The notes below the pieces were generated by a model. The model was given only the letters and a program-made list of their open reading frames with translations. It was not told where the DNA came from and did not search any database. From Candidatus Eiseniibacteriota bacterium (GTDB taxonomy: Bacteria > Eisenbacteria > RBG-16-71-46): a stretch of DNA of 64,000 bases. The stretch spans positions 64,001 through 128,000 of the forward strand of contig JBGPFC010000005.1 in the NCBI GenBank assembly GCA_041483195.1, given 5' to 3'. The translations under genes were made by a program, and so were the position numbers. Below, piece after piece: positions 4,605 through 61,334 of the stretch (within the stretch, counting starts at the first letter, position 1; every line of letters begins with the position of its first letter).

Positions 4605-4681
4605 GCGCCCGTAGCTCAATTGGATAGAGCGTTAGCCTCCGGAGCTAAAGGTTACAGGTTCGATTCCTGTCGGGCGCACCA
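4605..4681 (+). tRNA. tRNA-Arg (anticodon CCG)
   Basis: GCGCCCG/CGGGCGC acceptor stem, D arm TAGCTCAATTGGATAGAGC, anticodon arm TTAGC-CT-CCG-GA-GCTAA, T loop GGTTCGATTCC, encoded CCA. Confidence 0.98.
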
Positions 4682-15031: not shown

Positions 15032-17482
<2,451 letters not shown>

Positions 17483-17487
17483 CGGCC

Positions 17488-17519
17488 GGGCGCGGGAGGG
17501 ATTCGGGCTTCCCGCGCCC
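17488..17519 (+). terminator. GC-rich stem-loop after leuS (possible terminator, no U-tract)
   Basis: GGGCGCGGGAGG-N8-CTTCCCGCGCCC, a 12-bp stem just after the stop codon. Confidence 0.5.
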
Positions 17520-17572
17520 GCCGGCCCGGATCTCGAACGACTCGCGGGCGGCGGCTCTGTCGCACGGTCGTA

Positions 17573-17600
17573 GGTTTACATAATAACTCTTATGCGACAT
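17573..17600 (-). other. dif: Chromosomal dif site (XerC/XerD recombination site)
   Basis: Minus strand ATGTCGCATAA-GAGTTA-TTATGTAAACC: 11-6-11 layout with conserved CGCATAA/TTATG inner cores; AT-rich in a GC-rich intergenic gap; gene polarity switches nearby. Confidence 0.9.
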
Positions 17601-17692
17601 GCACCCCGGAGCCCGGGCAGCGGCCTTCGCGGCCATTCGCCCCCGATCCGCGCCGCCACGGCCCTCGCCCTCCGATCCGCTATGCTGCCCTC

Positions 17693-19051
17693 ATGCGATC
17701 CATCAACCCCACGACCGGCCGGCTGATCGCCGAATATCCCGAGCATGGGGCCGCGGCGGTCGACGCACGGCTCGCGGCCGCGCGCACGGCGCAGTCGGCG
17801 TGGCGGGGATCCGAGCCCGCATTCCGCGCCGGCCGCCTCCTCGAGGCGGCGCGCCTCCTGCGGCAACGCCGGTCCGAACTCGCCGGGCTCATGACCATGG
17901 AAATGGGAAAGCCCATCGCCGCCGCCGAGGCCGAAGTCGAGAAATGCACATGGGTCTGCGAGCACTACGCTCAGCATGGAGCGCGCATGCTCGAACCCGA
18001 GACGATCGCGACCGACGCATCGCGCAGCCTGGTGCGATACGAGCCGCTGGGCCTGGTGCTCGCGGTCATGCCGTGGAATTTCCCGCTGTGGCAGGTATTC
18101 CGGTGCGCGGCGCCGGCGCTCGCCGCGGGTAACGGCGTCGTGTTGAAGCACGCCTCGAACGTGCCGGGCTGCGCGCTCGCGATCGAGTCGGTGTTCGAGG
18201 CGAGCGGCCTGCCACCCGGGTTGTTCACGACGCTCCTGGTGCCGTCGTCCGCCGTCCCATCCTTGATCGCGCATCCCGCGATCGCCGCGGTCTCCCTGAC
18301 CGGCAGCGAGGCCGCGGGCGCCGCGGTCGCGGCAGCTGCCGGGATGTCGATCAAGAAGACGGTGCTCGAGCTCGGCGGCTCGGATCCGTTCATCGTGCTC
18401 GCCGACGCCGATCCCGAGCGGGTCGCGGAGCATGCGGTCGTTGCGCGCACCCTCAACAACGGGCAGAGCTGCATCGCGGCCAAGCGCTTCATCGTCGAGG
18501 CGAAGGTCGCGGCCCGCTTCGAGCGCGCGATGATCCGGCGCATGTCGGATCTCGTGATGGGCGATCCCGCCGATCGCGCGGTGCAGATCGGGCCGCTCGC
18601 CCGCGGCGACTTGCGCGAAGAGCTCCATGCGCTGGTCTCGGACTCGATCGCAGGCGGCGCGGCGCTCCGCCTGGGCGGACGCATCCCAGAGGGTCCCGGC
18701 TTCTTCTACCCGCCGACTGTCCTCGCCGGCGTCGCGCCCGGGATGCCGGCGTTCGACGAGGAAACGTTCGGCCCGGTGGCGGCGCTCACGGCGGCGCGTG
18801 ACGCGGACGATGCCATCGCGCTGGCGAATCGCTCGCGATTCGGTCTCGGCGCGAGCGTGTGGACGGCGGACCCCGCGCGCGGCGAGGCCCTGGCCGCGGA
18901 GATCGAGGCCGGAGCGGTGTTCGTGAACGGCATCGTGAAGTCCGACCCGCGGCTCCCGTTCGGCGGCATCAAGCGATCGGGATTCGGGCGCGAGCTCGCC
19001 GTGCATGGCATCCGTGAGTTCGTGAACGCGAAGACGGTCTGGGTGCGCTGA
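17693..19051 (+). CDS. NAD(P)-dependent succinate-semialdehyde dehydrogenase-like aldehyde dehydrogenase (Sad/GabD-like)
   Basis: MPWNFP, LKHAS, LTGS, ELGGSD, NGQSCIA (catalytic Cys), EETFGP and PFGGIKRSG motifs. Confidence 0.93.
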   Translation: MRSINPTTGRLIAEYPEHGAAAVDARLAAARTAQSAWRGSEPAFRAGRLLEAARLLRQRRSELAGLMTMEMGKPIAAAEAEVEKCTWVCEHYAQHGARMLEPETIATDASRSLVRYEPLGLVLAVMPWNFPLWQVFRCAAPALAAGNGVVLKHASNVPGCALAIESVFEASGLPPGLFTTLLVPSSAVPSLIAHPAIAAVSLTGSEAAGAAVAAAAGMSIKKTVLELGGSDPFIVLADADPERVAEHAVVARTLNNGQSCIAAKRFIVEAKVAARFERAMIRRMSDLVMGDPADRAVQIGPLARGDLREELHALVSDSIAGGAALRLGGRIPEGPGFFYPPTVLAGVAPGMPAFDEETFGPVAALTAARDADDAIALANRSRFGLGASVWTADPARGEALAAEIEAGAVFVNGIVKSDPRLPFGGIKRSGFGRELAVHGIREFVNAKTVWVR

Positions 19052-19097
19052 GGCTCTCCGGCCCGCGCGGCCGGGGTCCCTCCCGCACCGCGCCCGC

Positions 19098-21170
19098 CTA
19101 GCGGCGTGGCGCGGCGGGCAACTGCGCGGCGGCCGGGAACTTCCTGCGGAGCGCGTCCACCCAGCCGTGTGCCTCCGCGTCGCGCGCACCCTCATCGCCG
19201 GAGATCGAGAAGTAGTGCTCGAACGATGCGACGGCCTCGAGATAACGCTCGTGCTGCAGCTGCACCATGCCCCAGCGGCGCCACGCCCCCGGCCACTCCG
19301 GCGCGAGCGCCCGCGCCGCGTACGCCTCGACCAGCGCGGGGGCTTCCGACGGAGCGGTGACGAGATAGAGATCCGAGAGCAGCGCGTGCGCCCCGGGGTC
19401 GAGCGCGTGGGCGGTGATGGCCAGCCGCGCCACCCCCAGCGCGCCAACGGTGTCGCGCGCGCGCAGGGCCGCGAGCGCGCGCGCGAGCTCGGGGGCCGGC
19501 CCCGGAGCCGGGGTGACTCCCGCGCGACGCAGCGCCTCGATCGCGGAAGCGCGATCGCCTCCATCGAGATCGATCCACGCCAGCCAGTACTGCGCCAGCG
19601 GATCTTCGGGAGTCTTTCCGATCTGGTAGAGGAGCGCCGCGCGCGCCGAGGCCGGCCGGTCACTCACCAGCGAGCCGGAGGCGAGCCGGTAGAACACATC
19701 GCCATCGGCTTCGCTCTCGCTCAACGAGTCGTCGCGGACTTCGAAGAAGAAGAGCGGCCCGCGCGTCGCCTTCTCGGCATCGAAGTCGGTCGCGAAGTAC
19801 GAGCGCAGGCTGGTGTCCCGATACGACCAGCGCACGACCGGCCCGTCGCCGGTTTGAAATCCCACGTTTCCCGCGAGCCCGGCGAAGAACAGCGTGCTGC
19901 GCGGCGGAACGACCGGGCGGGCCGCGCGGAGCTGCCTCAGGTAACGCTGCACCGTGCTCGAGGCGCGCGCGATGTAGAAGCGGTTGATGTGCGAACGGGC
20001 GCTCCACGCGTCGCGCACTGGCGCGAATTGGTCGAGCGCCGACGATCGCGCGGAGCCCGACGCGACGATCGCGACCACCGCCAACGCGAGGGCCGGGGGC
20101 CGCGGCGCGAGCCACGCGCCGAGCGCGAGCGCCACGCCACACAGCGCGAAGAGATAGTAGTAGGCGCTCCAGATCGCGGCGACCGGCGCGATCGGCAGCG
20201 TGCCCGCGAGCGCCCACACCAGCCCCACCGCGATCGCGCGCGCGGCGCGCGGCCCGCCCCGCGAAGCTCCGCGCGCGGGAGCGACCCAGGCCAGCGCGGC
20301 CAGCACGATCGCGAGCGGAACCACCGGCGGCCGCGCGCCCGCGAGCCGCGTGAATCCTCCGGTGCGCCATTCGAGCCCGACCGAGACCTGCGCGAGATGC
20401 GCGAGTGCGGCCAGCGCGCCGCCCGGGGTGATCGCCAGCGCATCGCCCGGGCCCCCGCGCGCCCGCGCTGCGACGAACGCCAGCAGCCCCCATGCGCCCA
20501 CCGCGATCCCGAGCGGCCACCCGCGTCGCGCCGCACGCGACCACGATTCACCGGGGCGCGCCTCCGCGATGACCGCGACCACCGGCGCGAGCAGCACGAC
20601 CTCCTTCGAGAGCGCGGCGAGCAGCAGCGCCGCGCCCGCCAGCGCTCGCCGCCCCGCGATGTGAAGCCGGATCGCGGCGAGCGCGCCTGCCACGGCGAGC
20701 AGGTCCTGGCTCCCGCTCGCCCAGCGCACCGGCACGTCCGCCGCGTAGTGCATGGCCAGCAACCCGGCGGCGATCAGCGCGGCGCGCGCGCCGGCGAGCC
20801 GGCGTGCCACGGAGTACGAAAGCGCGAGCACCGCCAGCCACAGGCCTAGATTGACGGCGTGAAAAACGGCGGGTGATTCGCCTCCCGCGCGCGCGACCAG
20901 CCAGAAGTAGAGCTGCCGTGAGACCGGCCGGTGGAAGTTTCCGATCGGATCGGGGGCGAGCAGGGCGGCCAGCCACGCGCGGCCGCGCACCGCATCGAGG
21001 AACAGGAAGTCGTCCGCGAAGAACGGGAGGCGGAGCGCCGGCCACCCGAGCCAGGCGGCGGCCGCCAGCAGCATGAGCAGCGCGAGCGGCGCACGCCACC
21101 CGCGATCGGCCCGCGTCGCGGGCGGCGCGGCGCTCGCTCTGCCGCCCGCGACCGCCGGCTCGCGGATCAC
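19098..21170 (-). CDS. Multi-pass GT-C-type glycosyltransferase-like membrane protein with C-terminal TPR repeats (TMTC-like)
   Basis: FFADDF, FHRPVS, FHAVNL, VRWASG and LLSKE followed by many TM helices and TPR-like helices; GTG at 21170 overlaps the GH57 stop; real part of track ORF 19098..22508. Confidence 0.72.
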   Translation of the reverse strand: MIREPAVAGGRASAAPPATRADRGWRAPLALLMLLAAAAWLGWPALRLPFFADDFLFLDAVRGRAWLAALLAPDPIGNFHRPVSRQLYFWLVARAGGESPAVFHAVNLGLWLAVLALSYSVARRLAGARAALIAAGLLAMHYAADVPVRWASGSQDLLAVAGALAAIRLHIAGRRALAGAALLLAALSKEVVLLAPVVAVIAEARPGESWSRAARRGWPLGIAVGAWGLLAFVAARARGGPGDALAITPGGALAALAHLAQVSVGLEWRTGGFTRLAGARPPVVPLAIVLAALAWVAPARGASRGGPRAARAIAVGLVWALAGTLPIAPVAAIWSAYYYLFALCGVALALGAWLAPRPPALALAVVAIVASGSARSSALDQFAPVRDAWSARSHINRFYIARASSTVQRYLRQLRAARPVVPPRSTLFFAGLAGNVGFQTGDGPVVRWSYRDTSLRSYFATDFDAEKATRGPLFFFEVRDDSLSESEADGDVFYRLASGSLVSDRPASARAALLYQIGKTPEDPLAQYWLAWIDLDGGDRASAIEALRRAGVTPAPGPAPELARALAALRARDTVGALGVARLAITAHALDPGAHALLSDLYLVTAPSEAPALVEAYAARALAPEWPGAWRRWGMVQLQHERYLEAVASFEHYFSISGDEGARDAEAHGWVDALRRKFPAAAQLPAAPRR

Positions 21171-23311
21171 GCGCTCCACATCGACGCCCCGAAACTCTCG
21201 TCGGGAACGGAAAAGCGAATCAGATCCCCGCCCGGCAGGTGATCCACGGGCGCGCCGCCATCGAGCACCCGGACCATCAGCTCGACCGGTTCCCCGGCCG
21301 AGAGTCCGAGCGCTGCGAATGGCACCCCCAGCTCGAGCACATCCTCGATCACGCAACGCGCCCCCGGAACGGGCTGCGGCTCGCCGGCTCCCGCGTCGCG
21401 GGTGATGACCGTGGTCCCGCGCTCCAGGCGCCGCACCTCGAGCCGCACCGGGCGCGGCGTCAGGAATTCGAGCGCGAGGCCGAACGCGCCGTCGGGCGGC
21501 CCGTTCTCGACGAAATCGAGGCGCATGAAGAACTGCGCGGTGTCGAACCCGAAGTAGAGATCGCGCGCGATCCCGGCGCCGCGGTGCATCGAGCTTCCCC
21601 CCGCCCCCAGCCGGAACCGGCCCGCGGGATGCCACTCGTAGAATTGCGTGCGCCGCCCGTCCAGCACCGGATGCACGAGTCCGATCGGAGCCCGATACGA
21701 ATCCCGAGCCACCGCCGGCCGGGCGACGGGGACCTGCAGCCATGCCGGCGCCACGCGGCCCGCGCGCTCGTAGGTCGCCTGCAGGTGCTCTCGAAACAGG
21801 AGGTCGAACACCGGCTGGTCGGGGGTGTGATGATCGTCCCCGAACCACCAGAACCAGTCCGACCCCTCCGCCGCGTACAGACTCTCCCACGCCGCGGGAT
21901 GCGTCGCGTCGGAGGTCCGGCCCTCGACCAGCGCGCGCCGCGCGCGCGTCAGGAGTTCCCACGCGCGGTTCTTCTCCGGATGTCCGATCCAGACGTGGAG
22001 ATCGGCGTCGATCCAGGAGCCCGTGTGCAGCGCCGGCAACGGGTCCCGGGCCGCGGCCTCCGCGATCGTCTCGGACGGCGTGCGGGTGCGGATGTCGGGT
22101 GCGGTCGCGAGCGCCGCGTAGAGCGACTCTAGAAATGGGCCGCCGTCGTCCGCGTACTGCTCCCAGCAATTCTCCCCGTCCAGGATCACGACCACCAGCG
22201 GCGGGCGCTCGCCGCCGAACTCGCGCCCGACGCGGCGCACCCGCGAGATGAAATCGGCCGCCGCCTCGTCGGGCCGCCAGTGCGAGTACACGAAGCCGAT
22301 GCGATCGCTCAGCTCGTGATCGCGGAACAACAGCGTCACGTCGCCGGCGCGCGTCGCGAATCGCCACGGCCGGTAGAGCGCGGCGCGACGTCGTTCCGCA
22401 GGCGGCAGCGAGTGCCAGAGCACGCCCTCGTCGCTCGCGAGCCACCGGACGCCCTGGCGGGCCGCGAGCTCCGCGACCTCCGGACTCACGCTCCCCTCGG
22501 GCGGCCACATCCCCGCGGGCGGCGCGCCGAACACCTGAGCGTGGCGCGCGCGAGCGCGCGCGATCTGTCGGGCCGCATCCTCCGCACCGTCGAGACCCTC
22601 GGCGGGGACCGCGAGATCGGGACGCGCGCGGCGCGCCGATGCGAGATCGATCAGCAGCGGCAGGATGGGATGATAGTACGCGGACTCCGAGAGCTCGATC
22701 TGGCCGCGCTCCGCGAGCGCGCGATACGCCGGCAGAACCTCGGCCAGCAGCCGGCGATGGAGCGCGAGCAGATCATCGCGCGATTCCAGCGTGAAATCGC
22801 CGGGGCGCGCGAGCGCGCGCGCCGCCTCCGGTTCCGCGTGATAGAGCGGATCGAGCCACGCGAGCAGAAACCAGCATTCGAGCGCCAGCAGATCCTCGTC
22901 GTCGGGGAGCGTTCTCGGTGTCGCGCGGCGCCCGCGTTCGGACCGCCGCACCAGCGCCTCGAATCGCGGCCAGCGCTCGAGCGCATGGCGCGGCGCCACG
23001 GCGCAGCGCGCGGCGACTTCGGCGCGCTCTTCGTCCGCGAGCGCCGAGACCGGACGCGCGAGGAGATCGAACAGCGCATCTGGAGCCCCGGCGGCCGCGG
23101 CCTCCAGCTGATCGAGCAGCGATGGCACGAAGTTGAAGGCGGCACGCAGCCCGGGGTAGCGCTCCAGGCGGCGCGCCATGTCGAGGTAGTCCTTGGTGGC
23201 GTGAAGCCGCACCCACGGCAGCAGCGAGCGGCCCGATCGAGGGCTGCGGTAGTCCGGCTGATGGTGGTGCCAGAGGAAGATCAGATCGACCGGTGAGGCC
23301 GGCTCGCTCAC
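21167..23311 (-). CDS. Glycoside hydrolase family 57 (amylopullulanase-like)
   Basis: LWHHHQP, WVRLHATKDY, YYHPILP, GMWPPEGSVS (nucleophile E), ILDGENCWE (acid/base D), AEGSDWFWW. Confidence 0.93.
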   Translation of the reverse strand: MSEPASPVDLIFLWHHHQPDYRSPRSGRSLLPWVRLHATKDYLDMARRLERYPGLRAAFNFVPSLLDQLEAAAAGAPDALFDLLARPVSALADEERAEVAARCAVAPRHALERWPRFEALVRRSERGRRATPRTLPDDEDLLALECWFLLAWLDPLYHAEPEAARALARPGDFTLESRDDLLALHRRLLAEVLPAYRALAERGQIELSESAYYHPILPLLIDLASARRARPDLAVPAEGLDGAEDAARQIARARARHAQVFGAPPAGMWPPEGSVSPEVAELAARQGVRWLASDEGVLWHSLPPAERRRAALYRPWRFATRAGDVTLLFRDHELSDRIGFVYSHWRPDEAAADFISRVRRVGREFGGERPPLVVVILDGENCWEQYADDGGPFLESLYAALATAPDIRTRTPSETIAEAAARDPLPALHTGSWIDADLHVWIGHPEKNRAWELLTRARRALVEGRTSDATHPAAWESLYAAEGSDWFWWFGDDHHTPDQPVFDLLFREHLQATYERAGRVAPAWLQVPVARPAVARDSYRAPIGLVHPVLDGRRTQFYEWHPAGRFRLGAGGSSMHRGAGIARDLYFGFDTAQFFMRLDFVENGPPDGAFGLALEFLTPRPVRLEVRRLERGTTVITRDAGAGEPQPVPGARCVIEDVLELGVPFAALGLSAGEPVELMVRVLDGGAPVDHLPGGDLIRFSVPDESFGASMWSA

Positions 23312-27820: not shown

Positions 27821-28741
27821 TCAGGGTCGAGGGTGGAAGGTGCGATGCACCTCCCGGAGATAGGCCCGGTCGAGATGGGTGTAGATCGCGGTGGTCTTGA
27901 CCGACGCGTGCCCGAGCAGCTCCTGGACGACGCGCAGATCGGCCCCGCCTTCGAGCAGATGGGTCGCGAACGAATGGCGGAGCGCGTGCGGATGCACGCG
28001 GGTCGCGATCCCCGCCGCTCGCGCGTGGCCATGCAGGATCTTCCAGAATCCCATCCGGCTCAGCCGCCCGCCGCGCGCGTTGGTGAACAGCGCGTCGTGG
28101 TGCGCGCGCGCGCAGAGCGTGGGGCGCGCGCGTTCGAGGTATTCGCGCAGCGCGGACTCCGCGGCGCGGCCGAACGGAACCTGCCGTTCCTTGTTGCCCT
28201 TGCCGGTCACCGTCACGCCGCGCGTCCGAAGCTCGAGGCTCCGCCGATCGAGCGCGCACAACTCGGAAACGCGCAGCCCGCTCGCATAGGCCAGCTCCAG
28301 CATGGCGCGGTCGCGCAGCGCGAGCGGAGACTCCCCATGCGGCTGGCCCAGCAGTCGCTCGATCGCCTCGAACGGGAGCGCGTGCGGAAGCCGCCGCTCC
28401 GGCCGGGCCGCGGGGAGCCGCGCGATCGGATCGTCGGGCCGTGCCCCGGTGCGCTCGAGGAACGCGTGATACCCGCGCAGCGAGGACCTGCGCCGCGCGA
28501 CGGTGCTGCCCGCGAGCCCGCGCTTCACGAGCGTCGCGAAGTAGCCGTCCACGAACGTCGCCGTCGCCTCCGTCCAATCGGCGAGCCGGTGCTGGCGCGC
28601 GAAGCCCAGGTAGTCGGAGAGATCGCGCGCGTAGCCGTCGAGCGTGTGGGCGCTCAGGCGGCGGCCGGTGCGCAGCTCATCGAGGTAGCGATCGACGAGG
28701 AGGTCGAGCCCGCTCCCGGGAGCCGGCGCGCGCATGCTCAT
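27821..28741 (-). CDS. xerD: Tyrosine recombinase XerD
   Basis: SAM-like N-terminal domain; ASGLRVSEL, GKGNKERQVP, LSRMGFWKI, HALRHSFATHLLEGGADLRVVQELLGH, TAIYTH; ATGA overlap with uvrC. Confidence 0.9.
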   Translation of the reverse strand: MSMRAPAPGSGLDLLVDRYLDELRTGRRLSAHTLDGYARDLSDYLGFARQHRLADWTEATATFVDGYFATLVKRGLAGSTVARRRSSLRGYHAFLERTGARPDDPIARLPAARPERRLPHALPFEAIERLLGQPHGESPLALRDRAMLELAYASGLRVSELCALDRRSLELRTRGVTVTGKGNKERQVPFGRAAESALREYLERARPTLCARAHHDALFTNARGGRLSRMGFWKILHGHARAAGIATRVHPHALRHSFATHLLEGGADLRVVQELLGHASVKTTAIYTHLDRAYLREVHRTFHPRP

Positions 28742-30819: not shown

Positions 30820-31077
30820 ATGCCGCATCACAAATCCGCGGCCAAGCGGGTGCTGACGAACGAGAAGGCCCGGCAGCGCAATGTCGCGGCCCGGACTCGT
30901 CTCCGCTCCGCCCTCAGGCTGGTGCGGGCCGCGACGACGCGCGCCGAAGGCGACGCCGCGTATCGCGCGGCGGTCAAGATGCTCGACCGCACCGCATCGA
31001 AGGGCATTATCAAGAGGGAGACCGCCAGCCGGCAGAAATCGCGGCTGGCCAGCTTCACCCAAAAGCTTCCGGCCTGA
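30820..31077 (+). CDS. rpsT: 30S ribosomal protein S20
   Basis: MPHHKSAAKR...LDRTASKGIIKRETASRQKSRL; strong AAGGAGG Shine-Dalgarno. Confidence 0.96.
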   Translation: MPHHKSAAKRVLTNEKARQRNVAARTRLRSALRLVRAATTRAEGDAAYRAAVKMLDRTASKGIIKRETASRQKSRLASFTQKLPA

Positions 31078-31084
31078 GGCCGAG

Positions 31085-31513
31085 ATGCGTTCGACCGTGG
31101 CCGCGCTGCTCGCGGCCAGCCTCACGCTCACGCTCGTTTCGCCGGCCGCCTGCGCTCCCGCGCTGGCGGCCGATCCATTTACGGAAGTCCCGCTCCCTCC
31201 CCCGACCCGGCACGCTTACGGCTGGGCGATCCTCACCTTCGTCGCGGGCGCCGGTCTGATCGGCACGTCATTCGGACTCTCGGACCACGCCAATCAGGAA
31301 TATGCCGAATACCGGCGGGCCACCGATCCGGGGCGCATCTCCAGCCTCTACGACGCGGCTGTGCACGACGACCGGCTCTCGACGGCCTCCTTGCTCGCCG
31401 GCGAGGTCATGATCGGGGCGAGCCTCTACATCGGATTCCTGCGCAGGACCGACGCGCCGCGACTCTCCATCGCATTGGGGCCGGAACGATGCGCCCTGGC
31501 GCTGCGCTTCTAG
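31085..31513 (+). CDS. Hypothetical secreted/membrane protein (signal peptide, two hydrophobic helices, C-terminal beta-hairpin ending in Phe)
   Basis: MRSTVAALLAASLTLTLV signal; AEYRRA amphipathic helix between hydrophobic segments; ends RLSIALGPERCALALRF. Confidence 0.7.
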   Translation: MRSTVAALLAASLTLTLVSPAACAPALAADPFTEVPLPPPTRHAYGWAILTFVAGAGLIGTSFGLSDHANQEYAEYRRATDPGRISSLYDAAVHDDRLSTASLLAGEVMIGASLYIGFLRRTDAPRLSIALGPERCALALRF

Positions 31514-32742
31514 TCCTCGCGCTGCTCGCGGGGTGCAGCAGCCGCGAGCATTCCAATCCATTCGACCCATTGAATCCCGTCACGCGCGGCCGCCCGGCCG
31601 GCTTCGCGGCCATCGCGGGCTCCGGTCTCGTGCAATTGCGCTGGACGCCGCCGCCGATCGAGGGGGATTTCGGATACCAGGCCTACCGTCGCGCGCAGAA
31701 CGACAGCGTGTTCCGGCCGGTGGGCATGCTGCTGCCGGGCAGTCAATCGTCGCTGCTCGACTTCGGGCTCACGAATGGGCTGCGCTACGACTACCGCCTC
31801 TACTTCGTGTTTTCGGGCGTGCTCGGGGGTCTGCCGGCGGAGGATCACTCGACGCCGGGATTCCTGCGGCCGTGGCTCGCCGATCTCGCGCGTCACTCGC
31901 TGATCGAGCTCACGCCGGACGGGCGGCAGATCGCCTTCGAATCGAGCGGCTTCTACGGACCGACCGGCGTGGCCGCGGACCCGCGCACCGGCTGGGTGTG
32001 GCTCTGCGACACCTACGACGGCCGGGTGCTCGGCTACGACCCGGTGCGCGCGACCCGCGTTTCGATCTCCGGACTCTCCGAACCCGTGGCCGTCGCGCTC
32101 GATCCGATCGACGGAAGCCCGTGGGTGTGCGACCAGGCACGCGGCGGCGTGTATCACTTCACGACCGGCGGCGCGCCGGGATCCCCCGCGCAGCTCGCGC
32201 CGATCGACACGCCGATCGGCATCGCGATCGATCCTTCGGGCGCCGCGGTCTGGGTGTGCGAGCGCGGCGCCAATCACGTCCGCCGCTACGCGCGCGACGG
32301 CACGCCGCTCGGGAGCGCCAACGTGACGGCGCCCTCGCGGGTCGCGGTGGATTCCGCCAACGGCGACGCGTGGGTCACGAGCTTCGACGGCCGCGCGATC
32401 GTGCATCTCTCTCCGGCCGGGGCGGTGCTCGCGACGCTCACGGACGCCTCCGGCCCGATCGGGATCGCGGTCGATGCGCCGCGAGGGCGCATCTGGGTCG
32501 CCGATGCGCGCGGCGGCGGCGTGATCGCCTTCCGCCGCAGCGGGCTCGTCGAGCTCCGCGTCGGCGGGCTGCCCGGCGCGCGCGAGGTGGCGGTCGACCT
32601 ACCGACCGGTGAGGCCTGGGTCACGGTGCCCGGCCTCGGCGAGGTGGTGCGTATCGCACCCGACGGGACCGTTCTCGAATACCTGCGCGGCCTCTCCGAT
32701 CCCTACGGCATCGCGCTCGATCCCGGCCGCCACGTGCCATGA
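31489..32742 (+). CDS. Lipoprotein with FN3-like domain and NHL-type beta-propeller
   Basis: Lipobox LAGC, NPFDP motif, VQLRW..YRR..LTNG.RYDY FN3 pattern, about seven P.G/AVA.D...G.VWV repeats. Confidence 0.85.
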   Translation: MRPGAALLVLALLAGCSSREHSNPFDPLNPVTRGRPAGFAAIAGSGLVQLRWTPPPIEGDFGYQAYRRAQNDSVFRPVGMLLPGSQSSLLDFGLTNGLRYDYRLYFVFSGVLGGLPAEDHSTPGFLRPWLADLARHSLIELTPDGRQIAFESSGFYGPTGVAADPRTGWVWLCDTYDGRVLGYDPVRATRVSISGLSEPVAVALDPIDGSPWVCDQARGGVYHFTTGGAPGSPAQLAPIDTPIGIAIDPSGAAVWVCERGANHVRRYARDGTPLGSANVTAPSRVAVDSANGDAWVTSFDGRAIVHLSPAGAVLATLTDASGPIGIAVDAPRGRIWVADARGGGVIAFRRSGLVELRVGGLPGAREVAVDLPTGEAWVTVPGLGEVVRIAPDGTVLEYLRGLSDPYGIALDPGRHVP

Positions 32743-39296: not shown

Positions 39297-40181
39297 TCAG
39301 GCGCGTGGATGCGCCTGGCCGTATGCCTTGCGCAATCGCGTCTGCGAAACGTGCGTGTAGATCTGGGTCGTCCCCAGCGAGCGGTGCCCGAGCAGCTCCT
39401 GGATCGCGCGCAGATCCGCGCCGCGATCCAGCAGGTGGCTCGCGAACGAGTGGCGCAGCGCGTGCGGCGTGACGCCGATCCCGCCCGCGACCTCGGCGAG
39501 CCGGCGGCGCACGACCCGCTGCACCGTGCGTCCCGAGAGCCGGCTCCCGCGCGGGCCGCGGAACACCGGCTCGTCGGGGCGTCCGGTCGACCGGCCGCCC
39601 GCGCCCAGGAATCGATCGAGCGCGCACAGGGCGGTGTCGCCGGCCGGCACCACGCGCTCCCGCCGTCCCTTGCCGCGAACGCGCAGCAGCCCGCCGGGCG
39701 CATCCACGTCGCCACGGTTGAGGCCGACCAATTCCGAGAGCCGGAGCCCCGCCCCGTACGCGAGCTCCAGCAGCGCGCGGTCGCGCAGGGTCGCCGCGTC
39801 GGTCGCATCGAGCCGGTCGAGCGCGCGCGAGAGATCGAGCGAAGGCAGCGTGCGGGGCAGCCGCCGCGGCAGGCGGGGCGCGCGCAGGCCGCGCGCGGGA
39901 TCGTCCGCGATCACGCCGCGCCTCACGCAGAATCGCGAAAAGCTGCGCCACGCCGCGAGCGCCCGTGCCGCGCTGGCCGCGGCGTGACCCGAGCGATAGA
40001 GATCGCGCTGGCCCTGCTCGAGGAGCTCGCGCGTCCAGAGCGCGGGATCGACGGGGCGCCCCTCGCCCGCCGCGCGGTCGAGGACCCGCGTCACGTCGCG
40101 ACGGTAGGCGTCGAGCGTGTGAGGCGAAGCGCGCCGCACGGCCGCGAGTTCCGTGAGAAACAGATCGAGCGCCGCGCGCAT
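39297..40181 (-). CDS. xerC: Tyrosine recombinase XerC
   Basis: SPHTLDAYRRD, GLRLSEL, GKGRRER, PHALRHSFASHLL, LGH, TTQIYTH, AHPRA; directly downstream of topA, a common synteny. Confidence 0.9.
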   Translation of the reverse strand: MRAALDLFLTELAAVRRASPHTLDAYRRDVTRVLDRAAGEGRPVDPALWTRELLEQGQRDLYRSGHAAASAARALAAWRSFSRFCVRRGVIADDPARGLRAPRLPRRLPRTLPSLDLSRALDRLDATDAATLRDRALLELAYGAGLRLSELVGLNRGDVDAPGGLLRVRGKGRRERVVPAGDTALCALDRFLGAGGRSTGRPDEPVFRGPRGSRLSGRTVQRVVRRRLAEVAGGIGVTPHALRHSFASHLLDRGADLRAIQELLGHRSLGTTQIYTHVSQTRLRKAYGQAHPRA

Positions 40182-54622: not shown

Positions 54623-55378
54623 CTATCGAGGTACCCGACTCCCCGTCCTGCCGATCTCGAAGTGAGCCGGGAGCCACCCCGGAAGCTGCTCGATGCGCGC
54701 GAGCGATGCAATGCCCGCCTCGCCGTAGTCCCCGTATGGATCGATGAGCACGAAGTGCATCGCCGCCGCGCGTGAACCGGCTTCGTCAACGGAGCGAATG
54801 TCTCCAACGTAGAGCGCGTGCCCGGGCGCGACCCCGAGCCGGCCGAGCGCGATTCGGAAGATCGCGGGATCGGGCTTTTCAACGCCGACCAGCTGCGAGT
54901 CCACCACGAACTCGAGCCCCGCCCGCACGCCGCACTGCTCGAGATGCCATTCCGCGCGGCCGTCGGAGTTCGAGACGCATGCGCACCGCATGCCGAGCGC
55001 CGAGAGCCCATCGAGCGCATCGCGCGCGCCCTCCATGGGCCGCGTCCACAGGCCCTCGCCGAGCTGCCGCGCGAACCAGCGGCCGATCACCGCCTCGCGA
55101 GCGGGCGCCTCGACCCCCGCCGCCTCCAGCATGCCGCCGAAGTAGGCGCGCGTGTCGCCATGCGTCCCGAGCGGCGGATGCGGCTCGCCATCGCGCCGCG
55201 CGTGACCGCGGCTGCGGTCGTAGGCGCGGCGCCCCGCGATCTCGGCGCGGCGCAGCGCCTCCGCCCCGAGCGGCGTGCCGAGGGCACCCACCTGCTCGGC
55301 CATCCACTCGAAGTCGAGCCGCAGCAGGGTACCGCCCGCGTCGAACACGACCGCGTCGAGCCGCGGCCGCTCAGCCAT
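54623..55378 (-). CDS. HAD-superfamily hydrolase
   Basis: FDAGGTL, VSNSD, EKPDP and YVGD..VD motifs. Confidence 0.9.
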   Translation of the reverse strand: MAERPRLDAVVFDAGGTLLRLDFEWMAEQVGALGTPLGAEALRRAEIAGRRAYDRSRGHARRDGEPHPPLGTHGDTRAYFGGMLEAAGVEAPAREAVIGRWFARQLGEGLWTRPMEGARDALDGLSALGMRCACVSNSDGRAEWHLEQCGVRAGLEFVVDSQLVGVEKPDPAIFRIALGRLGVAPGHALYVGDIRSVDEAGSRAAAMHFVLIDPYGDYGEAGIASLARIEQLPGWLPAHFEIGRTGSRVPR

Positions 55379-56033
55379 GCGTGGCCTCGCCCGCGCGCGC
55401 GTCCGATGCTTCGGCGGATTCGAACACGACGCGCCGTCCGTCGCGACGCCATGATTCCCGCAGCATGCGCCGCACCGTCGCGGGAAACAGACGATGCTCC
55501 GCCTCGTGCATGCGCGCCTCGAGCGCCGCGAGTGAATCGTCGTCTCGCACCTCGACGGGAGCCTGAGCGAGAATCGGTCCGGCGTCGAGCGCGTCGTCCA
55601 CCAGGTGCACGGTGCAGCCCGTCACGCGCACCCCGTGGTCCAGCGCCCTGCGGATGGCGTCGAGTCCCGGGAACGCGGGGAGCAGGGACGGATGAATGTT
55701 CAGGACCCGATCCGGAAACGCATCGAGCAGCGGCCGATGCAGGCGGCGCATGAATCCCGCGAGCAGCACCAGCTCTGCGCCGTGCGCACGCAGCGCATCG
55801 ATCCAGGGGCGCTCGTCCTCGAGACGGGTGCGATAGCCGCCGGTCGGCGGCGTGAGGCTCTCGATGCCGAAACGGCGCGCGCGCTCGATCACCGGCGCAC
55901 CCGGTCGGTCGCACAGCAGCAGGGCGATTCGTCCACCCAGCTCTCCGCGCGCGGCCGCGAGGGCGAGCGCTTCGAAGTTGCTGCCCGTGCCCGAAGCGAG
56001 CACCGCGAGCGTGGCGGGTGAAGAGAAGTGCAC
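55371..56033 (-). CDS. purN: Phosphoribosylglycinamide formyltransferase
   Basis: LASGTGSNF, LAGFMR, NIHPSLLP and GCTVHLV..LDAGPI motifs. Confidence 0.96.
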   Translation of the reverse strand: MHFSSPATLAVLASGTGSNFEALALAAARGELGGRIALLLCDRPGAPVIERARRFGIESLTPPTGGYRTRLEDERPWIDALRAHGAELVLLAGFMRRLHRPLLDAFPDRVLNIHPSLLPAFPGLDAIRRALDHGVRVTGCTVHLVDDALDAGPILAQAPVEVRDDDSLAALEARMHEAEHRLFPATVRRMLRESWRRDGRRVVFESAEASDARAGEATHG

Positions 56034-56041
56034 GCCGCAAT

Positions 56042-58453
56042 CTACCAGCGGGCCGGAGGGCGGGCAAGCGTCGCGCCGCATCGCGCGGCGGATGATGGCG
56101 CCGTCTCGACGCCCGCGGCTCGCACGCCGCGCCGCCAGTCGAGCGCCGTCGCGCCGGCGTCCGACATCTCGAACCACAGCGCGCCTTCACGGTCGGTGCG
56201 ATGGATTCGCGCGCCGCTCGCGAGCAGCCGCGCCACCGCGCCGGCGTCGGGATGGCCGAACGGATTGTGCATGCCGCACGAGATCACGGCGTCCCCCGCA
56301 CGAAGTCCCCGCAGGAACGCGGCGCCGCTGGAGGAGCCGGAGCCGTGATGCGCGACCTTGAGCAGCGCGATGCCGGGCGCCACCCGCAGCGAGGCCTCGG
56401 CCGCGCTGTCGGCATCCGCGAGCAGCAGCGCGCGTCCGCGTGCGGCGCCCGCCTCGATGACGAGCACGGCGCCGTTGTCGGTGCGGATCTCCGCCGCCTC
56501 CGCGTCCCCGGGACGTGGCGGCCACAACACGACCAGCGGCGGCGCCGAGCGGAGCGTGTCGCCGCGCGCGCGCGGCTCGGCGCCGAAGCGCCGCGCGGGG
56601 CCCGCGACCAGCGGCAACGGAGCGGGCGCCAGGATCCGCATCACGTGCACGCCGCGACGCACCGCGTCCGCGCCCCCGGTATGATCGCCGTCGTCGTGCG
56701 TGAGCGCGAGCGTCTCGAGCCGGCGCACCGCGGCCCAGCGCATGAAGGGCAGCACGACGCTCTCGCCCGCGTCAACGTGCGGGGTGCGCGGGCCCGCGTC
56801 GATCAGCCACCATCCGTCCTCGAACCCGAGCGCGAGCGCGTCGCCCTGTCCCACGTCGAGCGCGACCAGCCACCAGCGACCCGCGGGGGGAGCGAGCGGC
56901 CGCACGGTAGACGCCAGCAGCAGCGCGATCGCGACCAGCGTCGCTCCCAGACCCCCGGTCGCGACGCGCGCGCGAGGCGCAGCTTCCCGCGCGCGCTCCA
57001 GATCGCGGGGCGTGGAGACCGCGATCGCGATCAGCGCGGCTCCCGCGCCGGCGACGATCGTGACGCCGGGCTCGCATCCGACTCCGACCATCGCGCCCGG
57101 CGCGCGGGCCGCGAGGGTCGCGATGCCGCGCAGCGCGGCGGCGAGCGCGTTACAGGCGTCGTACCACGGCGCGCCCGCGCCCGGCAGCGCGCAGTCCATG
57201 AGCGACGCCAGCCACGCCGCGGTGAGCAGCAGTCCCGAGACCGGGACCGCAACCAGATTCGCGAAAGCGCCCACCCACGAGATCGCGTGAAAGCGCGCCA
57301 TCAGGAGCGGCATCGCGGTGAGCTGCGCGCTCAGGGTCGGAAGCAAGGGCGCCGCGAGGCGCCGCCAGCGTCCGCAGCGCGCGCCCAGCCACGGACCCAC
57401 GGTCACGAGCCCGAGCACCGCCCCGAACGATAGCTGGAAGCCGAGGTCGCCCGACCAGCCCGGGGCGACCGCGAGCAGCGCGAGCGCGGAGAGCGCCAGC
57501 GCCTGCAGCGGATCGAGCGCGAGATCCATCACGCGCGCCCACGCGAGCAGGGCCTCGCCCGCCGCCGCGCGCGCGAGCGAGGGCAGGGGACCCGCGAGCG
57601 CGACGTACCCCAGCGCGCACAGCCCCCCGGCGAGCGCCCGGGCGCGCGGTCCCCCGCCCAGCGTCCCGCAAGCTGCGCGAGCGAGCGCCGCGAGCCATGC
57701 CACGTGCAACCCCGAGAGCGCGAGCAGGTGGATGATGCCAGCGGCGCGCAGCCGCGCGTTGAGCGCAGGCGAGAGCGCAGAACGATCGCCGACCACGAGC
57801 GGCACCACCAGCTCGCGCGACTCGGGAGTGAGATGGATCGCGAAGCGGCGCTCGAACGCACGACGCCAGCGCGCGGCGGTCGCGCGCGGCAGCGCGTACA
57901 CGCCTCGCCCGCGAGACGCCACCGCGTCGGGCGCGTGCCCGCTCGCGACCAGCCCCCCGGCCTCCGCCACCGCGCGCGCATCGAATCCGCCCGGGTTCCG
58001 CAAAGCTGAGGGCGGATCGAGCAGGGCGAGGGCCTCGATCGCGTCGCCCCATTCGGCGCCGCTGCCGGCCGGCAAGCGAACGCGCACCCGCGCCCCGCGA
58101 GGAAGCGGCGGCGCCGAGCCGCTCACCGCGATGATCGCGACCGGCTCATCCGATTCGCGAAGCGGCGGCTCGACCACCCGTCCCCGGATTCGAATCAGCG
58201 CGCCGGGTGGCGCGAGCGCGAGCCGCGCGCGCTCGAGAGCCAGATGATGCGCGGCGCCGCGCGCTCCGCCCGCGAGCGCGAGCGCGAGGACGAGGGCGAG
58301 CGTCCCGGTGCGATCCGGCGACCGCCACGCGATCAGGGCGAGCGGCATCAACGCCGCGAGCGCGGCGAGCGCCGCGGCCGGCGAGCGCCCCGGACCGCAC
58401 ATCATTCCGAGCCACACCGCGATCGCCGCCGGCACCGCGCATCGCCCGCCCAT
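56042..58453 (-). CDS. comEC: ComEC/Rec2 DNA-uptake channel
   Basis: NPGGFD, HLLALSGLHV, GFQLSF and MBL domain DVGQGD, THDDGDH, KVAHHGS, NPFGHP. Confidence 0.93.
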   Translation of the reverse strand: MGGRCAVPAAIAVWLGMMCGPGRSPAAALAALAALMPLALIAWRSPDRTGTLALVLALALAGGARGAAHHLALERARLALAPPGALIRIRGRVVEPPLRESDEPVAIIAVSGSAPPLPRGARVRVRLPAGSGAEWGDAIEALALLDPPSALRNPGGFDARAVAEAGGLVASGHAPDAVASRGRGVYALPRATAARWRRAFERRFAIHLTPESRELVVPLVVGDRSALSPALNARLRAAGIIHLLALSGLHVAWLAALARAACGTLGGGPRARALAGGLCALGYVALAGPLPSLARAAAGEALLAWARVMDLALDPLQALALSALALLAVAPGWSGDLGFQLSFGAVLGLVTVGPWLGARCGRWRRLAAPLLPTLSAQLTAMPLLMARFHAISWVGAFANLVAVPVSGLLLTAAWLASLMDCALPGAGAPWYDACNALAAALRGIATLAARAPGAMVGVGCEPGVTIVAGAGAALIAIAVSTPRDLERAREAAPRARVATGGLGATLVAIALLLASTVRPLAPPAGRWWLVALDVGQGDALALGFEDGWWLIDAGPRTPHVDAGESVVLPFMRWAAVRRLETLALTHDDGDHTGGADAVRRGVHVMRILAPAPLPLVAGPARRFGAEPRARGDTLRSAPPLVVLWPPRPGDAEAAEIRTDNGAVLVIEAGAARGRALLLADADSAAEASLRVAPGIALLKVAHHGSGSSSGAAFLRGLRAGDAVISCGMHNPFGHPDAGAVARLLASGARIHRTDREGALWFEMSDAGATALDWRRGVRAAGVETAPSSAARCGATLARPPARW

Positions 58454-58583
58454 GCCGCTGCCGAGCGAAAGAGGCGTGCCAGCGTGCGCCGGGCGCGACG
58501 CCCGTCCCGCGCAAGGACTTGCCAGGAAGCAACGGGCGGCCGCCCTCCACGACGAGGACGGCGGCCGCCCCGGAAGCGTCAGC

Positions 58584-61334
58584 TCAGCGTTTGACGGTCG
58601 CGGGCGGAGCCGCCATCTGCGCGCTCAGGATCTCGGTGAAATATTCGTCACCGGTCTGGATCGACGCGCTCATGTAATAGCGAACCAGCCCGTGCTCGTC
58701 GAACATCCCGGGCGGGTACATGGCGACCCCCACGACGCCGGTCGGAGCCTTGAGCATGACCATCTGATAGCGCCGCCACGGACCGTCGGGGGCCTGCACG
58801 TGCAGCCACATCTCGCGCACCTCGGTATCGCTCACGCCCTCCAGGCTGCCCGAGATGACGACCGGGGCATCCAGCGGGATGCGCGCCGGCGGAGCGAGCG
58901 CGCTCAGCGACGGACGGTCGAGATTGAGCCCGAGCTCGAAGGTCGCGAACCGCTGGTTGCCGCCGGGAAGATCGATGACCTGGACCGGCGCGCCCTCGCC
59001 CTGGTACTCGACGCGGACGCTGTGCGGCCCGCGCGGCAGCTCGAGCGGAAGCGGCGTGAGCCCGCGCTTCTCTCCATCGATCCACACGGTGGCGCCGGTG
59101 AGATCCTGCGTACCTCTCTCGTCGGTCAGGTTCGCGCGCACCTCGATGACACCCGTGGCGGGCGAGGTCATCGGTCGCGCGATCACCTCGACGGTCTCCC
59201 CCACGCGCACCGGGACCGTCTCGCTCCACGACGGCATGCCGGGCCCCGAGAAGCGCAGCTCGTGCGGCCCGGGTACCACGCTGTCGGCCTTGACCGGCGC
59301 GAACCCGATGCTCTGTCCGTCGAGCGTGACCGCGATCGGCAGGGCGGCGTCCGCGCTGTGCACAGAGACCGATCCCCAAAGCGGCGCATCGAGAACGACC
59401 CGATCGCCGCGCTCGCCGCGCACGTCGAATCCCGCGCTCCCGAGGTCCGAAAGCGAGAGCGTGACGCGGTGCGTGCCGGGCGCGAAGTCGATGGTCGCCG
59501 GAGTGCGACGCGCGAGGTCCTTGCCGTCGGCGGCGATCCACGCTCCCTGCGGGCGGCTGTTCACCGTGACCTCGTAGCGTGCGCCGCCGACACCGATCGC
59601 TCGCAGCGCGTGAAGCAACGAAGGACGGCGGCCGTCTGCCCCCTCGCGATTCTCCTGCAGGCTGCCCACCAGCCAGCCTCCGGCGAACAACGCGACGAAC
59701 AGCACGACCCAGGCCCACGGCTTCTTCCAGAGCGGGCGCTCGAATTCCATCTCGCTCGCCGATGGCCATGCGGGTCGCAGCGGCGGATGCGCGGCGGGTG
59801 GCGCGGCTTCGGAATCATCCGCCCACGGAACGGCCTCCCGATCGGGCGCGGCCGGGAAAGCCTCGTCGGCCGCGCCGGGTGCGGCGAACGGCGCATGGAT
59901 CGGCGCGGCCGGAACCGCAGGCGCCGCATCCGGCGCTTCGATCGGAGCGATCGTGATCTCCGCCGCCCGCGGCGGCGCGCCATGCGAAGGCGTTGGCGGC
60001 AGCATCATCGGCGCGTGAGTCTCGATCGCGATCGGGATGGGCGGCGCGACGCTCTCGCCGATCACGCGCGGATGCAGCTCGATCTCCGACCCGACCGGTT
60101 CGATCTGCATCCCCAACACGGGTCGCGCGGGGGATACCGGGCGATCCGACTCACGCACGAGCCAGTCCGCGGCGTCCTGCGCGAGCGACGGCGGCTCGGG
60201 CGTGGGCGGGATCAGGTCGGGCAGATCGGATGGCGTCGCGAGCGCATCGCCCGGCATTCCTTCGGGGACCGATGCGAACTCCGGCTCGCGTCCCTCGAGC
60301 TCATCGGATGGAATCTCTCGAGTCTGGCGCGCCGCGCGATTCCACGGCCAGACGCGCTCGATCCACGCACGGAACACGCTGCGGCGTCGGACGTGGTCCA
60401 CGTCGGATTCCGGCGAGTCCGAAGCTTCGCCCTCGGCGCTCGATTCCGCGGCCGCATAGACCGCAGGCGGCGCGGGGCTCGCGCCCGACAGGCGCGCGAG
60501 CGCGGCGGACGTGTCGCGCGCGGCGATTCCACGCATGCGCTCCTCTTCGCCGGCCGGCAGTTGAGGAAACAGCATGGCATCGCGCAGGCTCGACTCGCCC
60601 GCCGCGACCGGCGCCGGGACGGGGGCGAGCCCGCCGCCCGGCGCGACTGCGATCGGATCGGGCGCGCGCGGAGCGGGCACGGTCATCGGGCGGGCGATGG
60701 ACGGGGACGCCACCTCCGCGCGGGATGGAGCCTGAGGCGCCTCGCGCTCGTCCGGCCACTCCGCGACGACCGTCACCGCGGGACCCTCTGGATCGTGCGG
60801 ATCCGCGGCATACGTGAGGCACACCCGCACGCGGTGAGTGGCGTCGACACCGAACGCGCGCGCCTCGCTCCCCGAATCGTCGCGCACCCGCACCCACTCG
60901 ATATCGGCGAGCTCCCCGTTCAGCCACACTTCTGCCACCGCCTCGCCGATCCAACCGAATCCCACCTCGCGATCGCCGTCCACGAAGGCGAGGGTGCTGG
61001 GATGGGGCCCCTCCGCGCGGACCCACACCTCGCTGTGCGAGAACAGGAGTCCTGCCAGGGCGTGATGGAGCAGGGCGGGGATGGGCCGAGGGCCGGTGTC
61101 GGTGCGAGATGTTTCCCGCGCGACCCCGATCAGATCGCTGAGCCAGCCCTCCACCTCGGACGCGGTGTATCCCGATGGGACACCCAGGAGCAGCAGCTCG
61201 CATGAGGCGCTGCGCGCCCCGGCGCTCAAAACCTCGCCGCGAACCCGGGCCGAAATGTTCCACTGCCGGGTGGCCACATGAGCCACGTTCATCGAGGGGC
61301 TCCCTCCCCGAGCGACTGCCTTCGCTTCCATCAT
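58584..61334 (-). CDS. Single-pass membrane protein: divergent cytoplasmic N-domain, Pro-rich linker, TM, three PEGA domains, C-terminal beta domain
   Basis: TM WAWVVLFVALFAGGWLV; PEGA repeats (VNSRPQGAWI..TPATI..PGTHRV; GATVWIDGEKRGLTPL..GPHSV); start uncertain (61334/61292). Confidence 0.82.
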   Translation of the reverse strand: MMEAKAVARGGSPSMNVAHVATRQWNISARVRGEVLSAGARSASCELLLLGVPSGYTASEVEGWLSDLIGVARETSRTDTGPRPIPALLHHALAGLLFSHSEVWVRAEGPHPSTLAFVDGDREVGFGWIGEAVAEVWLNGELADIEWVRVRDDSGSEARAFGVDATHRVRVCLTYAADPHDPEGPAVTVVAEWPDEREAPQAPSRAEVASPSIARPMTVPAPRAPDPIAVAPGGGLAPVPAPVAAGESSLRDAMLFPQLPAGEEERMRGIAARDTSAALARLSGASPAPPAVYAAAESSAEGEASDSPESDVDHVRRRSVFRAWIERVWPWNRAARQTREIPSDELEGREPEFASVPEGMPGDALATPSDLPDLIPPTPEPPSLAQDAADWLVRESDRPVSPARPVLGMQIEPVGSEIELHPRVIGESVAPPIPIAIETHAPMMLPPTPSHGAPPRAAEITIAPIEAPDAAPAVPAAPIHAPFAAPGAADEAFPAAPDREAVPWADDSEAAPPAAHPPLRPAWPSASEMEFERPLWKKPWAWVVLFVALFAGGWLVGSLQENREGADGRRPSLLHALRAIGVGGARYEVTVNSRPQGAWIAADGKDLARRTPATIDFAPGTHRVTLSLSDLGSAGFDVRGERGDRVVLDAPLWGSVSVHSADAALPIAVTLDGQSIGFAPVKADSVVPGPHELRFSGPGMPSWSETVPVRVGETVEVIARPMTSPATGVIEVRANLTDERGTQDLTGATVWIDGEKRGLTPLPLELPRGPHSVRVEYQGEGAPVQVIDLPGGNQRFATFELGLNLDRPSLSALAPPARIPLDAPVVISGSLEGVSDTEVREMWLHVQAPDGPWRRYQMVMLKAPTGVVGVAMYPPGMFDEHGLVRYYMSASIQTGDEYFTEILSAQMAAPPATVKR

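Follow-up and report, generated by a model that had tools for sequence, protein, structure and literature searches.

Positions 17573-17600 of the window, as the whole 64-kb stretch of DNA analysed here is called, carry on the minus strand the 28-mer ATGTCGCATAA-GAGTTA-TTATGTAAACC. This sequence is very probably (with a probability of about 0.9) the chromosomal dif site of an uncultured high-GC bacterium whose gene order is nearest to that of Candidatus Eisenbacteria contigs. Its predicted role as a chromosome dimer resolution site, put forward in the original prediction, is supported by several features of the sequence, namely its architecture, its arms, its position in relatives, the Xer genes encoded in the same window, and the local gene polarity and GC skew. 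As such, it is an ordinary dif site and an expected housekeeping element, not a new type of system, and it alters no concept.

Direct extraction of the minus strand from 17600 to 17573 gives ATGTCGCATAAGAGTTATTATGTAAACC, which is identical in sequence, strand and position to the 28-mer originally described. It has an 11-6-11 architecture, in which two 11-bp arms with partial inverted symmetry surround a 6-bp centre.

17573..17600, minus strand: probable dif site, 28 bp, recognised by its sequence, its uniqueness in the window and the occurrence of its arms in 119 other sites
17600-17590, read on the minus strand: XerC-side arm ATGTCGCATAA, assigned by analogy with E. coli dif
17589-17584, read on the minus strand: central region GAGTTA
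17583-17573, read on the minus strand: XerD-side arm TTATGTAAACC, assigned by analogy with E. coli dif

When positions 7-12 are paired with positions 17-22, five of the six dyad pairs are complementary. The palindrome criterion for dif, as worded in the part of Kono et al. (2011, PMC3025954) used here, is more than four dyad pairs, and the 28-mer has five.

The site is located in an intergenic gap of 210 bp, a length that agrees with the earlier claim, between two genes of the plus strand.

15032..17482, plus strand: leuS (leucyl-tRNA synthetase), with Pfam matches to the editing domain, tRNA-synt_1 and Anticodon_1
17693..19051, plus strand: aldehyde dehydrogenase gene, product nearest to succinate-semialdehyde dehydrogenase (Aldedh, 448.9 bits)

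It lies 90 bp past the leuS stop codon and 93 bp 5' of the start codon of the dehydrogenase gene, the product of which reaches 557.9 bits with its best NCBIfam model, under the equivalog cut-off of 730. The 28-mer is the sole AT-rich patch of this gap, and since the window has a G+C content of 71%, the block is conspicuous. With up to three mismatches allowed, the full 28-mer occurs once in the 64-kb window, as does its 17-base core TCGCATAA-N6-TTATGTAAA, and neither is matched in any of 100 dinucleotide-preserving shuffles. A looser 12-base core with up to two mismatches matches the position of the site only, where 0.11 matches in the 64-kb window are expected. These single matches imply that the 64 kb hold no second, degenerate dif-like site. 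An Rfam scan of the whole window returned only a tRNA-Arg at 4605-4678, and the site matches no known RNA.

The remainder of the gap and its right flank contain a few further elements, among them a hairpin.

17483..17523, plus strand: GC-rich hairpin directly 3' of the leuS stop codon (-35.7 kcal/mol, z -2.16; an equally stable fold is reached by 5 of 200 shuffles)

This hairpin, which is separate from the dif site, may represent the end of the leuS transcript. A scan of 17400-19200 for promoters and terminators detected neither a sigma-70-like promoter nor a T-run terminator, the leuS hairpin itself having no T-run. ARAGORN called a tRNA-Leu (gag) at 17794-17871 on the minus strand, inside the coding region of the aldehyde dehydrogenase; Rfam at the gathering threshold reports no tRNA at these positions, and the call is probably a false positive. 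Functional repeats around the site were considered and rejected, the matches being GC-rich and at chance level. The arms of a 35-nt imperfect inverted repeat (17484-17518 and 19060-19094) are GC-rich hairpin regions at gene ends, and their similarity is probably due to chance.

The arms of the 28-mer are widespread among bacteria. A scan of genome contigs with TCGCATAA-N6-TTATGTAAA gave at least 120 loci, with one match per locus and each locus from a different assembly, as judged from the accession prefixes. Among the matches listed, the record titles span more than a dozen phyla and name Burkholderiales, Xanthomonadales-type genera, Rhodobacterales, Desulfuromonadales, Desulfobulbaceae, Myxococcales/Polyangiales, Bacillota, Bacteroidetes/Melioribacteraceae, Kiritimatiellae, Victivallales, Planctomycetota, Fibrobacterota, Omnitrophota, Aminicenantes, Latescibacterota, Methylomirabilota, Gemmatimonadota, Spirochaetia and Candidatus Eisenbacteria. 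Full 28-mers were recovered for 119 of the matches listed, leaving out locus L103, which ends within the stored flank; the 17 core bases are identical in these 119 sites of other genomes. At the variable outer positions, the bases found in the window are mostly the common ones. The frequencies of the window's bases in the 119 sites among the matches listed are as follows.

Outer position 1: A, 84 of 119
Outer position 2: T, 50 of 119
Outer position 3: G, 50 of 119
Outer position 27: C, 49 of 119
Outer position 28: C, 9 of 119
Spacer position 12: G, 28 of 119, common
Spacer position 13: A, 39 of 119, common
Spacer position 14: G, 3 of 119, rare
Spacer position 15: T, 4 of 119, rare
Spacer position 16: T, 101 of 119, common
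Spacer position 17: A, 107 of 119, common

The site had been described as a peculiar pairing of a Proteobacteria-like XerC arm with a Bacillus-like XerD arm. The description is literally right, but the pairing is not peculiar: given that the scan yielded at least 120 loci, this combination of arms is the common, pan-bacterial form of dif. The same applies in part to the GAGTTA spacer, which had been called non-canonical. Its two middle bases are indeed rare in the 119 sites among the matches listed, but its other four are common. The commonest spacer among these matches is TGTATA (28 of 119), next to dozens of others; GAGTTA is absent from the 119 sites, and no relative with an identical 28-mer is found among them. 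Spacers thus vary freely, and only the two middle bases of GAGTTA are uncommon. This rare dinucleotide should be irrelevant to recombination between sister sites, because the two partners would be identical. The recurrence of the core once per genome in many phyla, at skew switches, provides a useful control, but earlier surveys imply as much.

The window encodes two intact Xer paralogues near the site, at distances close to the 10 kb (xerD) and 22 kb (xerC) of the original prediction.

27821-28741, minus strand: XerD-like tyrosine recombinase, 10.2 kb from the site
39297-40181, minus strand: XerC-like tyrosine recombinase, 21.7 kb from the site

In comparison with NCBIfam, the XerD-like protein scores 321.3 bits with the XerD model TIGR02225 (cut-off 329.6) and 308.1 bits with the XerC model, and it passes the tyrosine-recombinase subfamily model NF001399 (332.3, cut-off 279). 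Its alignment with E. coli XerD (1a0p, E 7e-59) spans the full length. The ATG of its gene overlaps the stop codon of uvrC (28735-28741), an arrangement suggestive of translational coupling in a uvrC-xerD operon. The XerC-like gene is located upstream of dapF and downstream of topA in the block of minus-strand genes. Its product reaches 296 bits with the XerC model TIGR02224 (cut-off 335.15), 257 bits with the XerD model and 266.6 with NF001399 (cut-off 279), exceeds the Pfam cut-offs for Phage_integrase (133.5 bits) and Phage_int_SAM_1 (47.8 bits), and is likewise alignable from end to end with 1a0p (E 1.3e-50). As the scores fall under the XerD and XerC equivalog cut-offs, the proteins are named XerD-like and XerC-like and are not certified equivalogs. 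The two are paralogues with 40% identity, and in their alignments with E. coli XerD both have the motifs of Arg (GLRxSEL), Lys (KGxKER/KGRRER), His-x-x-Arg, His (LGH) and Tyr (IYTH). In the tyrosine recombinase family, the R, K, HxxR, H and Y residues of these motifs are catalytic.

Close linkage of xer and dif is uncommon in a sample of 80 loci with long flanks. Among the matches listed, a Xer-like gene lies within 10 kb of the motif in four of these 80 (L055, 5256-6053; L061, 13861-14721; L040, 17615-18190; L028, 4001-4420).

The gene map, for which genes were called from codon-position GC bias together with Pfam and NCBIfam matches, places the site beside a change in transcription polarity. 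Every gene that can be called to the left of the site lies on the plus strand, as had been claimed: trpD, trpC, trpF and trpB, followed by genes for a methyltransferase, a GGDEF protein, a GFO/IDH/MocA oxidoreductase, a hexapeptide transferase, a DegT aminotransferase, a PAS histidine kinase and a sigma-54 response regulator, and by lptE, holA and leuS. To the right, the plus-strand aldehyde dehydrogenase gene is followed by a run of minus-strand genes from 19098 onwards. This run comprises the genes for a membrane protein of no family match, a GH57 protein, a TPR protein, a SNF2 helicase, an outer-membrane-like protein and the XerD-like protein, then uvrC, dapB/A/F, the XerC-like gene, topA, secA, cspA, guaA, purH, comEC and a gene for a PEGA protein. 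The point of convergence and the exceptions within the minus-strand run are listed here.

19052..19097, no strand: transcription convergence point, at which the end of a plus-strand gene (19051) faces the end of a minus-strand gene (19098)
30820-31077, plus strand: rpsT, an exception in the minus-strand run
31489-32742, plus strand: NHL-repeat protein gene, an exception in the minus-strand run
about 55.3-55.75 kb, plus strand: short stretch with plus-strand codon bias, a possible third exception

Between 19.1 and 61.3 kb, all genes but three had been placed on the minus strand; two clear plus-strand genes bear this out, and the third exception amounts to a short stretch of codon bias. The polarity switch had been placed at the site itself. 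The switch exists, but it is found 1.5 kb to the right, at 19051/19098, and the aldehyde dehydrogenase gene is the only plus-strand gene between it and the site.

The strand bias of the window is very strong, with 15 of 15 called genes on the plus strand up to 19051 and two to three plus-strand genes in the next 42 kb (to 61334). This is above the usual bacterial level, for what is a single window. The first gene of the minus-strand block (19098-21164), which faces the dehydrogenase gene, encodes a hydrophobic, Ala/Leu-rich product of about 650-690 amino acids with a TPR-like tail, which has no Pfam match at E<=1e-5 and no NCBIfam match at E<=0.01. The AT skew of the plus strand reaches 0.16-0.30 at 19001-23000 and at 55001-60000, over the membrane-protein and GH57 genes and over comEC and the PEGA-domain gene, respectively, and elsewhere remains mostly within +/-0.1.

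The GC skew changes in the same region. On the plus strand of the window, it amounts to 0.012 left of the site and to -0.028 right of it. The cumulative G-C curve reaches its maximum at 9407, remains on a plateau (132-175) as far as about 20 kb, and from there declines steadily, reaching -796 at 64 kb. The maximum thus lies 8 kb to the left of the site, and the absolute skew does not exceed 0.03. Because the plateau from 9.4 to about 20 kb contains the site, the latter lies inside a turning zone and not at a sharp apex. The skew of the coding strand is 0.03 for the 36 genes co-oriented with the inferred replication forks versus -0.012 for the four opposed genes; with only four opposed genes, replication skew and coding skew are inseparable in this window.

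A comparison with the 48 loci among the matches listed in which the motif is flanked on each side by 4 kb or more places the window with the majority. In 40 of these 48 loci, the plus-strand GC skew drops from left to right (binomial p 3e-6), and the remaining 8 are without the expected drop. The sign changes from plus to minus in 28 of the 48 and in the opposite direction in four. In the 40 loci with a drop among the matches listed, the motif was counted on the plus strand in 20 and on the minus strand in 20, so dif seems free to take either orientation with respect to the replichores.

The candidate KOPS GGGNAGGG points towards the site seven times and away from it three times in the 64-kb window, a difference that is not significant. 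Codon strings such as GCTGCT and GCTGGT account for the k-mers with a strong flip at the site; they flip because the gene strand flips too, and k-mer polarity is therefore uninformative either way. A KOPS-like polar motif was thus not demonstrated in the 64-kb window. No ftsK gene was found in the 64-kb window. The site presumably lies in the region in which the two replichores meet, and it would also mark the terminus of the whole chromosome.

Among the matches listed, the best neighbourhood protein matches of the window are to Candidatus Eisenbacteria contigs. On one of these, L060, the gene order is histidine kinase, sigma-54 regulator, lptE, holA, trx, trxB, thioredoxin-TPR, leuS, dif and a convergent GH57 gene, and the window shows the same order. 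The proteins are 44% (histidine kinase, over 188 residues), 55% (sigma-54 regulator), 46% (lptE), 44% (leuS) and 39% (GH57) identical, and holA of L060 was identified by Pfam. The motif follows the leuS stop codon of L060 by 75 bp. Between the site and GH57, the window carries two genes that L060 lacks there, namely the aldehyde dehydrogenase gene and the membrane-protein gene at 19098-21164. On L008, a TPR gene points to the motif on one side and leuS, with 43% identity, on the other. A third Eisenbacteria contig, L070, has lptE and no leuS beside the motif. The motif is thus adjacent to leuS in two of the three Eisenbacteria contigs (L060 and L008, not L070) among the matches listed. On the Latescibacterota contig L021, the motif lies 79 bp after GH57.

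The conserved portion of these loci is confined to the site. In a 148-bp alignment of the window with L008, L060, L070, L025 and L021, invariant columns occur almost only inside the 28-mer, and the flanks cannot be aligned. Both 11-bp arms of L008 are identical to those of the window, and a single arm base differs in L060 and likewise in L070; in the window, L060 and L008, it is the XerD-side arm that is oriented towards leuS. LeuS itself is only 43-44% identical between the window and the latter two. A block that is constant in position, orientation and sequence at about 45% protein identity can be regarded as the footprint of a functional site. The check proposed with the original prediction, conservation of the 28-mer in relatives, accordingly gave a positive result for the arms and for the position after leuS in L060 and L008, and different spacers. 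The four Eisenbacteria-like sites have four spacers between nearly constant arms: TCTATA in L008 (6094-6121), TATCTA in L060 (2355-2382), GAATCA in L070 (7634-7661) and GAGTTA in the window.

Readings other than that of a dif site at the terminus have to be weighed against these data. It is unlikely that the 28-mer is a genuine dif site at which the forks do not meet and that the polarity flip merely reflects two co-directional gene blocks facing each other by chance. The weak skew, the 10-kb plateau without a sharp turn and the maximum at 9407 would be consistent with this explanation, as would the confounding of skew and gene strand and the statement, in the part of Kono et al. (2011, PMC3025954) used here, that termination need not fall strictly at dif. 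However, the same motif lies between left-high and right-low skew in 40 of the 48 other loci among the matches listed, transcription converges at the site in L060 and L008 as well, and the skew of the window stays negative for 44 kb beyond about 20 kb.

The surroundings of the site, with the trp operon, holA, leuS, uvrC, topA, secA, guaA and purH as core housekeeping neighbours and no phage or plasmid genes in the window, argue against a Xer target of a mobile element or a secondary replicon, such as an IMEX junction or a plasmid site of the cer/psi type, and this origin is very improbable. An integrated element would leave two sites; only one is present, no second dif-like site with up to three mismatches being found in the 64 kb, and this counts against an IMEX. 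The two genes that the window has in excess of L060 between the site and GH57 might be taken as inserted DNA, and the imperfect inverted repeat mentioned above does bracket the site and the dehydrogenase gene. Yet its 71% complementarity is at chance level in DNA of 71% GC, in which 105 such pairs occur in 8.5 kb, and distant relatives have the site in the corresponding position behind leuS. Finally, the location 93 bp 5' of the dehydrogenase start codon and the status of the 28-mer as the only AT-rich patch in the gap could suggest an operator or promoter of this gene, or a near-palindrome arisen by chance in AT-rich sequence, in either case without Xer function. Hardly any weight can be given to this explanation in view of the 0 of 100 shuffles that match, the lack of a sigma-70-like promoter in 17400-19200, the retention of the 28-mer beside leuS in relatives without the dehydrogenase gene, and the same arms in 119 sites of other genomes among the matches listed. 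A chromosomal dif site in the terminus region is thus the preferred reading.

This dif site is only mildly unusual, in that xerD is also located near dif, the linkage of leuS and dif is deeply conserved, and the middle dinucleotide of the spacer is rare. It is conceivable, albeit rather improbable, that the terminus forms an unusually fixed module, in which dif has stayed behind leuS across a deep divergence (lptE-holA-leuS-dif-GH57), both xer genes are kept within about 22 kb, their supply or dosage is tied to the replication of the terminus, and the spacer drifts freely. If this were true, the four spacers in four genomes could act as a species barrier to elements that exploit Xer recombination. 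In practical terms, the dif site is a landmark of the terminus region in an uncultured high-GC genome. In metagenome assemblies of the phylum it can be used to set the orientation of contigs and replichores, and it gives dif surveys a further entry at the phylum level.

The proposed mechanism follows the XerC/XerD/FtsK paradigm established at E. coli dif, as outlined in the parts of Kono et al. (2011, PMC3025954) and Le Bourgeois (2007) drawn on here. As in E. coli and B. subtilis, the XerC-like protein (39297-40181) would bind the arm ATGTCGCATAA, and the XerD-like protein (27821-28741) the arm TTATGTAAACC. If replication produced dimeric sister chromosomes, their two dif sites would be joined at the septum, presumably by an FtsK-type translocase. 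A Xer heterotetramer would then exchange strands at the borders of the 6-bp GAGTTA, giving rise to two monomers. We infer the arm assignment, the dependence on FtsK and the recombination activity from these related systems.

For comparison with known systems, the E. coli and B. subtilis dif sequences taken as reference were those printed in the Methods of Kono et al. (2011, PMC3025954). The window and E. coli dif are identical at 17 of 28 positions, with 7 of 11 in the XerC arm and 8 of 11 in the XerD arm. The stretches CGCATAA (positions 5-11 of the XerC arm) and TTATGT (positions 1-6 of the XerD arm) are shared. Differences affect the four outermost bases in the XerC arm, three bases in the XerD arm and the centre, which is GAGTTA in the window and TGTATA in E. 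coli. Like the E. coli system, that of the window combines a 28-bp site of the 11-6-11 type with partial dyad symmetry, two paralogous recombinases and a local change in skew and polarity around the site; unlike in E. coli, both xer genes lie within 22 kb of it. The match to B. subtilis dif comprises 19 of 28 positions, with 10 of 11 in the XerD-side arm and 6 of 11 in the XerC-side arm. The recombinases acting on the B. subtilis site are RipX and CodV.

Other bacteria rely on a single recombinase, as in the XerS/difSL system of streptococci and the XerH/difH system of Helicobacter. These systems perform the same task, dimer resolution, with tyrosine recombinases, whereas the window encodes two paralogues of the XerC/XerD type and has a site of the classical XerCD form. 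The recombinases of the window score 98.7 and 78.7 bits with the XerS model (cut-off 267) and match XerH (5jjv) weakly, with E 1e-17 and 4e-12.

Computational prediction of dif sites has been performed before, by Carnoy and Roten (2009), as cited in the part of PMC3025954 used here, and by Kono, Arakawa and Tomita (2011, PMC3025954), who, according to the same portion of the text, predicted dif in 641 organisms of 16 phyla, near GC-skew shift points. The phylum of the window is absent from the compared part of Table 1 of this 16-phylum survey, and in a literature search, in which 81 papers named the phylum, no paper paired Eisenbacteria with XerD or with a dif site. The parts of Kono et al. 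(2011) considered here further report a tendency of xerC to be close to dif and of xerD to be close to the origin. The site of the window is the same kind of object as the sites predicted there, near a skew shift and with xerC close by; contrary to the trend for xerD, its XerD-like gene lies 10 kb from dif.
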